Origin: an uncultured archaeon
GTDB lineage: Archaea > Iainarchaeota > Iainarchaeia > Iainarchaeales > 0-14-0-20-30-16
Direction: 5' to 3'
Length of the DNA stretch: 17,228 nt
Assembly (NCBI GenBank): GCA_964565725.1
Contig: CAZMGA010000013.1
Span: 1 to 17,228 of the forward strand
Below are positions 6,915 through 8,978 of this stretch, piece by piece. The position numbers and the translations under genes were made by a program. The notes under the pieces were generated by a model, which saw nothing but the letters and a program-made list of their open reading frames with translations, searched no databases and was not told where the DNA came from. The stretch's first letter is position 1, and each line of letters begins with the position of its first letter.

Positions 6915-8978
6915 ATGTGTGGAATTTTAGGGGCTTTTAATTATAATGAAACCAATTTTAAAAAAATGTTAATTAAACAAAAACATAGAGGCCCAAATAA
7001 TTCAAAATATATTAATTTTAATAATTTACTTTTAGGGCAAAATTTGTTGGCAATTGTTAATTATATAGAACAACCAATTGTCTATAAAAATTATGCTTTT
7101 GCAACAAATTGTGAAATTTATAATTGGAAAGAATTAAGTAAAAAGGAAAATATAATTGCAGAAAATGATTCTGAGTTTTTATTTAAATTTTTAATAAAAC
7201 ATAAATTAAATATAAAAAAAGCATTAAAAAAAATAAATGGAGATTATGCTTTTGCTTTTATAATTAAAGAAAACAATAGTTTTAAAGGATATTTGGCGCG
7301 AGATATTTTAGGAGTTAAACCTTTGTGGTATTATAATACAAAAAATAATTTTTTATTTGCTTCTGAAAGAAAAACATTACCTATAAATTTTAGAAAAAAT
7401 GCAATAGATTTAAATCCTAGAATTTTATTAGAAATAAATTTTAACAATTTAAAAACAAAAGAAATATATAGAGGTTTTTACAAATATAAACAGAAAAATA
7501 TAGAATATATTAATGCAAAAAATAAAACAGAAAAATTGTTGATTAACTCAATAAGATCTAGAATTGCAAATAAAAAAACAGCAATCTTATTAAGTGGGGG
7601 TGTAGATTCATCTTTAATTGCAAAAATTTCTGAAAAATATTTTGATCCTATTTTTTATAATATATCTATAAACAAAAATAATGAAGATTATATATACACT
7701 AAAAAATTAGAAACTGTTTTAAAAAATAAAATAAAATATATTCAAATAAATGAAAAAAAAATTATATCTGCAATACCCAAAATTATAAAAATTATAGAAA
7801 CATCAGATCCCGTTAAAGTTGCAATCGCCATGCCTATGTATTTTATAGCAAAACAAGCCAAAAAAGACAACATAAAGGTAGTTTTAATAGGCACTGGTGC
7901 AGATTCTTTATTTTGTGGTTTTTTTAGATTTTTTAAAGAATATAACCCTACAAAAGATACAATTTCAAAATTAAGAAAAATTTATGATACTGATTGTTAT
8001 AGAGATGATACTATATTTATGAATTTTGGAATAGAACCTAGATTTCCATATTTAGACAAAAATTTAATAAATTTTGTATTACAATATTCTGATAATTATA
8101 AAATAAAAGAAGATGTAAAAAAATATATTCTTAGAGATATTGCAAAAAAATACTTGCCAGAAGAAATTGCTTTTAGAAAGAAAAAGGCAATTCAATATGG
8201 ATCTGGTTTTGATAAAATATTATCCAAATATATAAAAGAAAAAAAAGAAAAAACTAGAGGACATTTATTAAGAAAAAATAAATCTGAAAATGAAAAATTA
8301 GGTTGTTTGTTTTCAGGAGGAAAAGATTCAGTTTTAGCATTACAAATTATGTTAAATTCAAACTATAAGGTTCCATGTTTAATCACATTAATATCTAAAA
8401 ATAAAGATTCATATATGTTTCATACACCAACTATAAATTTAGTGGATTTACAAGCAAAAGCATTAAATATAAACTTAATAAAACAAAACACATTGGGACA
8501 TAAAGAATTAGAAATTAAAGATTTAGAAAAAGCGTTAAAAAAAGCAAGGAAAAAATATAAAATTAATGGAATTATTACTGGCGCAATTTTTTCTACATAT
8601 CAAAGAGATAGAATTGAATTAATATGTGATAAATTAGGCTTAAAGGTTTTTTCGCCATTGTGGCACAAAGATCAATATTTAGAATTAACAGAAGTTTTGG
8701 CATTAGGAAATAAAGTAATAATAACAAAAATTGCGGGTTATGGATTAAACAAAAAATATTTAGGAAAAATAATTGATAAAGAGTTATTAGAAGAATTAAA
8801 AAATTTAAATAATAAAATTGGCTTTAATATAGCAGGCGAAGGGGGGGAATATGAAACTCTCGTAATAGATTCAAATATCTTTAAAAATAAATTAAATATT
8901 TTAAATACAGAAATTAAAGAAATTGATGAATATACTTTTGAATTAATAATAAATGATGCAAAATTAGAAATGAAGTGA
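6915..8978 (+). CDS. Three-domain fusion: class-II (Ntn) glutamine amidotransferase, asparagine synthetase-type PP-loop domain, and DUF71/Dph6-like (diphthine-ammonia ligase, MJ0570-type) PP-loop domain
   Basis: N-terminus: MCGILG (Cys2 nucleophile), HRGPN, NCEIYNW, NDSEF, GDYAFAF, RDILGVKPLWYY, FASERK. Middle domain: LLSGGVDSS (about 7590-7613), AFRKKKAIQYGSG. C-terminal domain from about 8295: KLGCLFSGGKDS, DSYMFHT, GAIFSTYQRDRIE..LGLKVFSPLW, AGEGGEYETLVIDS. The frame is continuous throughout. Confidence 0.8.
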   Translation: MCGILGAFNYNETNFKKMLIKQKHRGPNNSKYINFNNLLLGQNLLAIVNYIEQPIVYKNYAFATNCEIYNWKELSKKENIIAENDSEFLFKFLIKHKLNIKKALKKINGDYAFAFIIKENNSFKGYLARDILGVKPLWYYNTKNNFLFASERKTLPINFRKNAIDLNPRILLEINFNNLKTKEIYRGFYKYKQKNIEYINAKNKTEKLLINSIRSRIANKKTAILLSGGVDSSLIAKISEKYFDPIFYNISINKNNEDYIYTKKLETVLKNKIKYIQINEKKIISAIPKIIKIIETSDPVKVAIAMPMYFIAKQAKKDNIKVVLIGTGADSLFCGFFRFFKEYNPTKDTISKLRKIYDTDCYRDDTIFMNFGIEPRFPYLDKNLINFVLQYSDNYKIKEDVKKYILRDIAKKYLPEEIAFRKKKAIQYGSGFDKILSKYIKEKKEKTRGHLLRKNKSENEKLGCLFSGGKDSVLALQIMLNSNYKVPCLITLISKNKDSYMFHTPTINLVDLQAKALNINLIKQNTLGHKELEIKDLEKALKKARKKYKINGIITGAIFSTYQRDRIELICDKLGLKVFSPLWHKDQYLELTEVLALGNKVIITKIAGYGLNKKYLGKIIDKELLEELKNLNNKIGFNIAGEGGEYETLVIDSNIFKNKLNILNTEIKEIDEYTFELIINDAKLEMK

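Follow-up and report, generated by a model that had tools for sequence, protein, structure and literature searches.

The window analysed here is a stretch of 17,228 nucleotides from an uncultured archaeon of the Iainarchaeales (GenBank assembly GCA_964565725.1, contig CAZMGA010000013.1, positions 1 to 17,228 of the forward strand). It is AT-rich (GC content about 24%) and carries genes of archaeal type, among them two for PCNA and those for TFB, the large subunit of primase (PriL), RadA, ThiI and the ribosomal protein L35Ae. The subject of this study is a gene on the plus strand (6915..8978) in which a module resembling the glutamine-dependent asparagine synthetase AsnB is fused to Dph6, the diphthine--ammonia ligase. 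According to the list of open reading frames (ORFs) and its translation, the gene starts with ATG and encodes 687 amino acids followed by a stop codon; the product is 100% identical to a protein in a public collection (P0001). Its main interest lies in the AsnB-like half, which is demonstrably no ordinary asparagine synthetase and whose role has been a question since 2012.

An earlier, sequence-only reading of this DNA had described one uninterrupted ORF with three domains. The ORF list and Pfam agree on this, and the profile searches for glutaminase, Asn_synthase and Diphthami_syn_2 domains that had been suggested there all gave matches. The first domain is a class-II (Ntn) glutamine amidotransferase (aa 1-190; 6915..7484, plus strand), recognised by the Pfam models GATase_7 (aa 52-155, 1.2e-18) and GATase_6. 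It is followed by an AsnB-like PP-loop domain (Asn_synthase; aa 195-455; 7497..8279, plus strand), which is supported by Pfam (onset at aa 206, 2.4e-46), by alignments to the PDB entries 1ct9 (AsnB) and 6gq3 (human ASNS) and by the family alignment to E. coli AsnB. Both domains superpose as a unit on these two structures (TM 0.78-0.80 over 475-499 columns). The third domain is Dph6 (aa 461-687; 8295..8975, plus strand), matched by Diphthami_syn_2 (PF01902) over aa 463-678 (1.2e-62); its first residue, aa 461, corresponds to nucleotide 8295, as had been estimated before. The chain ends with this domain, and Pfam found no RidA/YjgF-like domain in the fusion protein. Weak matches to other PP-loop models (NAD_synthase, guaA; Pfam/NCBIfam) were also seen. 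The motifs pointed out in the sequence-only reading are all in frame: MCGILG (aa 1-6), SGGVDSS (aa 227-233), LFSGGKDS (aa 465-472), SYMFHT (aa 499-504), YQRDRIE (aa 562-568) and AGEGGEYETLVID (aa 640-652).

The two modules are joined by a short connection (aa 456-460; 8280..8294, plus strand). In the AlphaFold2 (AF2) model of the whole chain, which has a mean predicted local distance difference test score (pLDDT) of 94.7 and a predicted template modelling score (pTM) of 0.92, this connection comes after a helix (aa 448-455) that continues into the strand at aa 461-465, with a pLDDT of about 90 over aa 441-460. The mean pairwise identities of the glutaminase, the middle and the Dph6 domain are 0.47, 0.51 and 0.55. 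Since conservation is alike in all three, none of them looks like a decaying pseudo-enzyme.

Is the fusion real? An assembly or sequencing artefact that merged two separate genes would be the most trivial explanation. The out-of-frame atg-aaa-aat-tag that had been noticed near the junction is indeed there (8290-8301), and the same single-ORF junction was found in 115 independent protein clusters with 39-63% identity. A search of the protein collection gave 961 matches at E<=1e-10; nearly all of the best 120 are 640-760 aa long, match all three Pfam models and are 39-63% identical. They stem from NCBI, JGI, ENA and Logan assemblies, and those with a name are from Woesearchaeota, Nanoarchaeota, Diapherotrites and 'Ca. 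ainarchaeum'. A query spanning the junction aligned end to end with dozens of representatives of clusters at 50% identity. At the level of genomes, an alignment of the N-terminal module alone was used to scan one genome per GTDB species, and the module was detected in at least 563 loci, mostly from DPANN archaea. The 80 best loci and one further locus were then scored with hidden Markov models of both modules: 77 of these 81 loci had both modules in one ORF. The remaining four comprise two loci cut by contig ends, one fusion with two in-frame stops (L065) and one true stand-alone N-terminal module (L078). In L065 (about 2900-3056 of a 3-kb contig) the PP-loop of Dph6 reads LL*GG*DG, with TGA and TAG in place of the Ser and Lys codons, which could be a sequencing error or a pseudogene. 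Because the junction recurs in independent assemblies and species, a false join in this assembly is excluded for practical purposes and we regard its probability as negligible; the earlier conclusion that the fusion is genuine as sequenced holds.

The C-terminal part had been described as a complete Dph6, and all lines of evidence are in line with this. It passes the NCBIfam equivalog TIGR03679 (Dph6_archaeal) with 257.5 bits against a cutoff of 197.3 (aa 464-681), shares about 50% of its residues with PH1257 and PF0828 over the C-terminal 227 aa and has the same fold (Foldseek TM 0.95-0.96, root-mean-square deviation 1.2-1.3 Å; 0.96 for 2d13). Its PP-loop, SGGKDS (aa 467-472; 8313..8330, plus strand), belongs to the pattern S-x-G-K-D-S that is present in 77 of 77 genome loci. 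Two DUF71 subfamilies can be told apart by a signature: EGGE/DxE188 marks Dph6, and the B12-salvage subfamily has ENGEF/YH188 instead (PMC3541065). The fusion protein has EGGEYE (aa 642-647; 8838..8855, plus strand), which is invariant in the family, and the residue equivalent to E188 of PF0828 is also retained. For PF0828, S44, Y45, E78, Y103, Q104, A149, E183 and E186 were predicted to face elongation factor 2 (EF-2) (PMC3541065); in the alignment all of them are kept except A149, which is replaced by Gly. Throughout the fusion family, PP-loop, signature and EF-2-interface positions are invariant. Judged by score, motifs and modelled fold, the C-terminal domain is thus an orthodox archaeal Dph6. 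It shares fold, PP-loop, EGGExE and EF-2-interface residues with the stand-alone enzymes PH1257 (2d13) and PF0828 (3rjz/3rk0/3rk1). However, these are single-domain enzymes of about 225 aa, whereas the window protein adds an N-terminal module of 455 aa, and His584, in a PLWH segment, is specific to the fusion. Genes for dph2, dph5 or EF-2 are not present on the 17-kb contig.

The AsnB-like half is less orthodox. We aligned the family to E. coli AsnB twice, with 116 clusters and separately with 77 genome-derived sequences. The N-terminal nucleophile that had been postulated, Cys2 (6918..6920, plus strand; Cys1 of E. coli AsnB), is intact: Cys is found in 113 of 116 and 76 of 77 sequences, and the rest are gaps. 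The equivalents of Cys1, Arg30, Asn74, Glu76 and Asp98 are invariant or nearly so in both alignments (C2, N65, E67 and D85 of the window protein are invariant), and Gly75 of the oxyanion hole is replaced by Cys. In the middle domain, the PP-loop, Gly347, Lys429 (K403) and Lys449 (K423) are invariant or nearly so, and so are the equivalents of Asp351 (Asp or Glu) and Arg387; Glu352 and Asp384 are retained as well.

Two positions stand out as lost. The first is Arg49 of E. coli AsnB, which is Leu44 here (7044..7046, plus strand) and Leu in 116 of 116 clusters and 77 of 77 genomes. The corresponding Arg-48 of human ASNS belongs to the glutamine-recognition network and is described as the only side chain there in a position to contact glutamine (PMC6748925). 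The second is Glu348 (human Glu-364), where the window protein has Thr327 (7893..7895, plus strand). This position is variable in the family (L/S/N/T/I/V) and is Glu in none of more than 190 members; the human variants E364A and E364Q have no activity (PMC6748925). In addition, a subfamily-specific motif, AIQYGS (8187..8204, plus strand; consensus AAQYGS), lies just past the ATP-site Lys423 where E. coli AsnB has QFSDGV. The TTIR segment of E. coli AsnB, which presumably has a role in aspartyl-AMP formation, is V-K-x-(G/A) in the fusion family. The module stops near E. coli residue 465, so that roughly 90 residues at the C terminus of AsnB have no counterpart in it.

In human ASNS, Arg-142 is the gate of the ammonia tunnel and Asp-405 and Glu-414 are its salt-bridge partners (bioRxiv 10.1101/2023.05.16.541009). 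In the alignment to 6gq3 these correspond to Lys135 (7317..7319, plus strand), which is nearly invariant in the family, and to Asp365 and Glu374. Arg363-Asp364-Asp365 (8001..8009, plus strand) align with human Arg-403, Ala-404 and Asp-405, which are a ligand of the substrate carboxylate, part of the tunnel lining and the gate partner, respectively (bioRxiv 10.1101/2023.05.16.541009). We also considered Lys135 as a stand-in for the lost Arg49, but this was ruled out by its alignment with the gate residue Arg-142.

Could the fusion nevertheless be an ordinary bifunctional protein, that is, a divergent but real glutamine-dependent asparagine synthetase that provides a host-dependent archaeon with asparagine and was joined to Dph6 only by genome streamlining, with no link in mechanism? 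AsnB and human ASNS are the closest solved structures to the N-terminal module. The module has in common with them the fold of two domains, Cys1, Asn74/Glu76/Asp98, SGGxDS, Gly347, Lys429 and Lys449, as well as the interdomain Glu that corresponds to human Glu-414 and, at the gate position of Arg-142, a basic residue. Most residues of the aspartate pocket are kept together with the ATP-site lysines (Asp351, Glu352, Asp384, Arg387, Lys429 and Lys449). The score with TIGR01536 (asn_synth_AEB, the glutamine-hydrolysing enzyme EC 6.3.5.4) is 263.2 bits, less than 4 bits short of the cutoff of 267.1. Furthermore, metabolic reconstructions of DPANN archaea list 'asparagine synthase' among very few amino-acid genes and detect its expression (PMC10266531, PMC11606122). 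On the other hand, the curated equivalog cutoff was not reached, and the more specific AsnB model PRK09431 gave only 239.7 bits against a cutoff of 499. The module is cut short at its C-terminal end and has Leu for Arg49 throughout, and the glutamate that is needed for activity of the human enzyme is never found at a position that is variable in the family. Leu at Arg49, the missing Glu348, the AAQYGS motif and the shortened C terminus mark the middle site as a distinct subfamily rather than a canonical enzyme converting aspartate to asparagine. As far as residues and profile scores can tell, the AsnB-like half therefore differs from a canonical asparagine synthetase, and we consider the streamlining explanation quite unlikely.

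What the N-terminal module does can be approached from natural variants. A junction-spanning query of 170 aa was compared with 1.84 billion representatives at 50% identity and gave 254 matches at E<=1e-10. Among the best 148 new representatives, 45 were three-domain forms with the N-terminal Cys and 14 had no glutaminase; most others were partial sequences or stand-alone Dph6 proteins. The glutaminase-less forms (P0124, P0136, P0144, P0148, P0153, P0156, P0159, P0160, P0163, P0166, P0170, P0171, P0172 and P0263) are 458-516 aa long, start with a Met just before the synthetase domain and continue with a complete Dph6. The same architecture is found at the loci L083 1523-3052, L084 3377-4861 and L085 2824-4308. 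A split gene as their source was ruled out, as the genes directly upstream are unrelated; since they are complete genes in contig interiors as well, these are true fusions. In the 2012 paper that described the AsnB-DUF71 fusion (PMC3541065), we found no mention of the glutaminase-less architecture. SGGxDS, Gly347, Lys429 and Lys449 are kept in their middle domain, and the Dph6 domain is intact.

A second group consists of unfused members of the same AsnB-like subfamily, either with glutaminase and middle domain (459-499 aa) or with the middle domain only (250-301 aa). They are represented by the proteins P0247, P0259, P0260, P0244, P0240, P0248, P0256, P0257 and P0258 and by the loci L078 1867-3330, L086 162-1661, L088 399-1304 and L089 4001-4867. 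They share Leu49, the lack of Glu348 and AAQYGS with the fusions; the exception is P0244, which retains Arg49. Where genomic context exists, no Dph6 gene is nearby, and a split gene was ruled out for them too. That unfused members with the same signature do not adjoin a Dph6 gene speaks for the autonomy of the N-terminal module. In a distance tree the variants are scattered and form no single clade, which is weak evidence as the tree has no support values. Two more members of the family have unusual lengths: in P0146 (1005 aa) the glutaminase is preceded by about 340 additional residues, and P0194 (899 aa) has large insertions.

A third kind of variant bears on the idea that the N-terminal module has no catalytic activity and serves Dph6 as a scaffold or regulatory pseudo-enzyme, for example for docking of EF-2 or for dimerisation. 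P0196 (636 aa) and P0207 (649 aa) are full-length fusions that start with MTRI... and have Thr for the catalytic Cys and Asp for Asn74. Together with the loss of Arg49 and Glu348 in the family, they could be taken as signs of a dead enzyme. But in these two proteins it is the Dph6 domain that is degenerate (in P0196 the PP-loop reads NASIDS and EGGE is lost), and the middle PP-loop is intact. Moreover, hundreds of sequences show no change at the Cys, the oxyanion Asn74, Glu76, Asp98, the PP-loop, Lys429 and Lys449, and the module is conserved like the Dph6 domain. A mere scaffold is thus very improbable.

The variants also allow a comparison of residue conservation with and without glutaminase, for which 78 three-domain and 14 glutaminase-less sequences were used. 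Neither form varies in the ATP/adenylation core of the middle domain, which consists of the PP-loop, D258, G326, G328, F333, G335, Y336, K396, K403, R407 and A-x-QYGS. PP-loop 1, SGGVDS in the window protein (aa 227-232; 7593..7610, plus strand), conforms to a pattern SGGxDS that is invariant in three-domain, glutaminase-less and unfused forms, and the same is true of the AAQYGS motif. A second set of middle-domain residues, E295, K301, Y362, D364, D365, M369, E374 and R376, is invariant only when the glutaminase is present and relaxed without it; several correspond to gate partners and tunnel-lining residues of human ASNS. Arg363-Asp364-Asp365, for example, is invariant in three-domain forms, and D364 and D365 are relaxed in the others. 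Because these interface residues relax together with the loss of the glutaminase, the two domains are coupled in evolution, just as they are in AsnB. And because the ATP core is invariant even without glutaminase, selection seems to maintain the middle domain by itself as a unit that uses ATP. The Dph6 domain behaves differently. There, 38 positions are invariant in both forms and only three relax (R564, K577 and H584), and PP-loop 2 is conserved in 14 of 14 glutaminase-less forms. Going by these positions, the Dph6 active site does not follow the presence of the glutaminase.

These patterns bear directly on the view that the protein is a glutamine-dependent diphthamide synthetase. The N-terminal module would then only make ammonia and deliver it, via the AsnB tunnel and a cleft in the middle domain, to adenylated diphthine in the Dph6 site, and ATP at the middle PP-loop would act as an allosteric switch. 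A good deal fits. The fusion is nearly obligate (77 of 81 loci), and the Dph6 domain takes the place of roughly the last 90 residues of AsnB; pTM and the short, ordered linker argue for a fixed packing. With Arg49 and the essential Glu348 gone, the ancestral aspartate chemistry looks abandoned. All three-domain forms have His584 and Lys577 in the Dph6 domain, two positions at which the stand-alone PF0828 and PH1257 differ. Last, a glutamine-derived ammonia supply has been proposed before (PMC3541065). However, the glutaminase-less fusions keep the middle PP-loop and the ATP lysines, which would be needless in a mere conduit, and the N-terminal module also occurs without Dph6 and away from Dph6 genes. 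The conservation of the Dph6 domain is almost insensitive to the glutaminase. Its EF-2-facing residues are conserved, and this face is expected to stay open for a substrate of the size of EF-2. Channelling of ammonia to the Dph6 site, which the sequence-only reading had put forward, is hence not supported by the variation, since the glutaminase co-varies with the middle domain and not with Dph6; a sealed channel from the glutaminase to Dph6 is probably not present. We regard a dedicated diphthamide synthetase as possible but rather doubtful.

The variation patterns and the two intact PP-loops favour the other option raised in the earlier reading, a bifunctional enzyme with two adenylating sites. 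The reading that we prefer, and to which we give about an even chance of being right, is that two working ATP-dependent amidoligases reside on one rigid polypeptide and that the glutaminase feeds its own middle domain. According to this model, Cys2 would hydrolyse an amide donor, presumably glutamine, and the ammonia would travel to the middle PP-loop site through a tunnel of the AsnB type, the gate of which would be formed by Lys135 together with Asp365 and Glu374. There it would amidate an acyl-adenylate; judging from the lost residues, this site probably does not treat its acceptor as a canonical AsnB would. The Dph6 domain would adenylate the carboxylate of diphthine on EF-2 and amidate it to diphthamide. 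The nearly obligate fusion, a linker that is short and ordered and the confident model of the whole chain argue for a functional link between the two modules. Most likely, the fusion reflects such a link, which could be a common target or pathway or a common local source of ammonia.

It is tempting to speculate further that the middle domain catalyses a so far undescribed ATP-dependent amidation or acyl-adenylate reaction that is tied to EF-2 or the diphthamide pathway and is present in most DPANN archaea, be it fused, without glutaminase or standing alone. This could be, for instance, a glutamine-dependent route that has the amino-acid-like 3-amino-3-carboxypropyl (ACP) side chain or that of diphthine as its target; a second modification would be another option. 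Any such link of the middle domain to EF-2 would be tentative, and we place this extension on the unlikely side.

Several points weigh against two separate amidoligases fed in this way. As Arg49 is lost, the protein may bind glutamine only weakly or use another donor. Most asparagine-synthetase pocket residues (Asp351, Glu352, Asp384 and Arg387) are kept, so a divergent but genuine asparagine synthetase is conceivable. Near-obligate fusion and rigid packing would also fit a direct hand-over of ammonia to Dph6. The samples of variants are small (14 glutaminase-less and about 9 unfused representatives), as is the weight of a tree without support values. Finally, our literature search gave no biochemical or structural study after 2012 and no activity data for the family.

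The architecture as such is not new. Fusions of COG0367/AsnB (GAT-II and Asn_Synthase PP-loop) to the N terminus of DUF71 were described in 2012 in Methanohalophilus mahii, Methanosalsum zhilinae and 'Ca. Nanosalinarum sp. J07AB56' (Biol Direct 7:32, Fig. 2C; PMC3541065), which contradicts the earlier statement that known archaeal DUF71 proteins stand alone. The idea of glutamine-derived ammonia is likewise from that time: de Crecy-Lagard et al. proposed that hydrolysis of glutamine gives NH3 to both PP-loop domains, and a reviewer asked which PP-loop takes the ammonia and what the asparagine-synthetase-like domain catalyses (PMC3541065). The sequence-only reading had allowed for the architecture being common and already characterised. 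Common it is, with loci in at least 563 GTDB species, and described; a biochemical characterisation was not found. Neither a 2018 paper on the evolution of diphthamide, which covers dph genes in Archaea including DPANN, nor a 2024 survey of archaeal fusions mentions the AsnB-Dph6 fusion. By its domains the window protein has the three-part architecture of the 2012 class, but what was then known from 'a few Archaea' is now a family in at least 563 GTDB species genomes, mostly DPANN. What our comparisons add are the non-canonical residues that set the AsnB-like half apart, the natural variants and the conservation that goes with the glutaminase.

The protein can also be compared with other amidating systems. 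In GMP synthetase and glutamine-dependent NAD+ synthetase, an ammonia tunnel connects a glutaminase with a PP-loop adenylating domain. These enzymes follow the same principle but have one adenylating site, whereas the window protein has two intact PP-loop sites. In yeast, Dph6 (YLR143W) is a DUF71 domain with two RidA-like domains that were proposed to supply ammonia (PMC3541065). Thus, the catalytic domain is fused to a proposed ammonia-supply module in eukaryotes as well; there the partner is C-terminal and RidA-like, and here it is N-terminal, AsnB-like and equipped with its own ATP site.

The findings have consequences for annotation. NCBI labels the fusion proteins of about 690 aa 'diphthine--ammonia ligase', a name that conceals an enzyme module of 455 aa. 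JGI labels some members 'asparagine synthase (glutamine-hydrolysing)' and others 'diphthine--ammonia ligase'. Reconstructions of DPANN metabolism count 'AsnB' among the very few genes for amino-acid biosynthesis (PMC10266531, PMC11606122), and this gene may be the AsnB-Dph6 fusion. If so, the inference of asparagine synthesis in these organisms is unsafe. The natural variants, that is, the glutaminase-less, the Dph6-less and the Cys-to-Thr forms with degenerate Dph6, make the reviewer's question of 2012 experimentally addressable, and with Methanohalophilus mahii a cultured organism that carries the fusion is at hand.

The genomic context of the fusion gene is not conserved. There was no conserved neighbour across the 81 loci, the commonest being an Obg/DRG-like GTPase in 12 loci, and dph2, dph5 or EF-2 genes were neighbours in none of the 81. 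The L35Ae and MTQ2-like methyltransferase genes that are its neighbours in the window are not conserved at related loci. The latter lies directly downstream (8975-9544, plus strand, probable ATG start at 8984; a GTG start would overlap the stop codon of the fusion gene by 4 nt) and encodes a protein methyltransferase of the HemK2/MTQ2 family with an NPPY motif (TIGR00537, 164 bits against a cutoff of 87). By family annotation, it would be a release-factor glutamine methyltransferase. Two enzymes that modify translation factors thus adjoin in the window, a pairing that is not conserved in 80 related loci.

A few other features of the window deserve mention. No RNA genes were found in it. The ORF at 648-1724 (plus strand) combines the C-terminal part of a GDSL-like lipase/acylhydrolase with Amidase_2 (N-acetylmuramoyl-L-alanine amidase), a peptidoglycan-type hydrolase on an archaeal contig; it starts with TTG and its true start is uncertain. 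The two PCNA genes are in tandem and overlap (1725-2435 and 2432-3166, both on the minus strand), and the downstream copy (1725-2435) is far more divergent, with Pfam values of about 1e-6 to 1e-7 versus 6e-17. Two small adjacent ORFs on the minus strand (9541-9879 and 9879-10259) matched neither Pfam nor NCBIfam models. For a genome with a GC content of about 24%, the first (112 aa) contains strikingly many Arg and Lys residues, and the second (126 aa) has a HEMSH motif that could be a zinc-protease-like HExxH.

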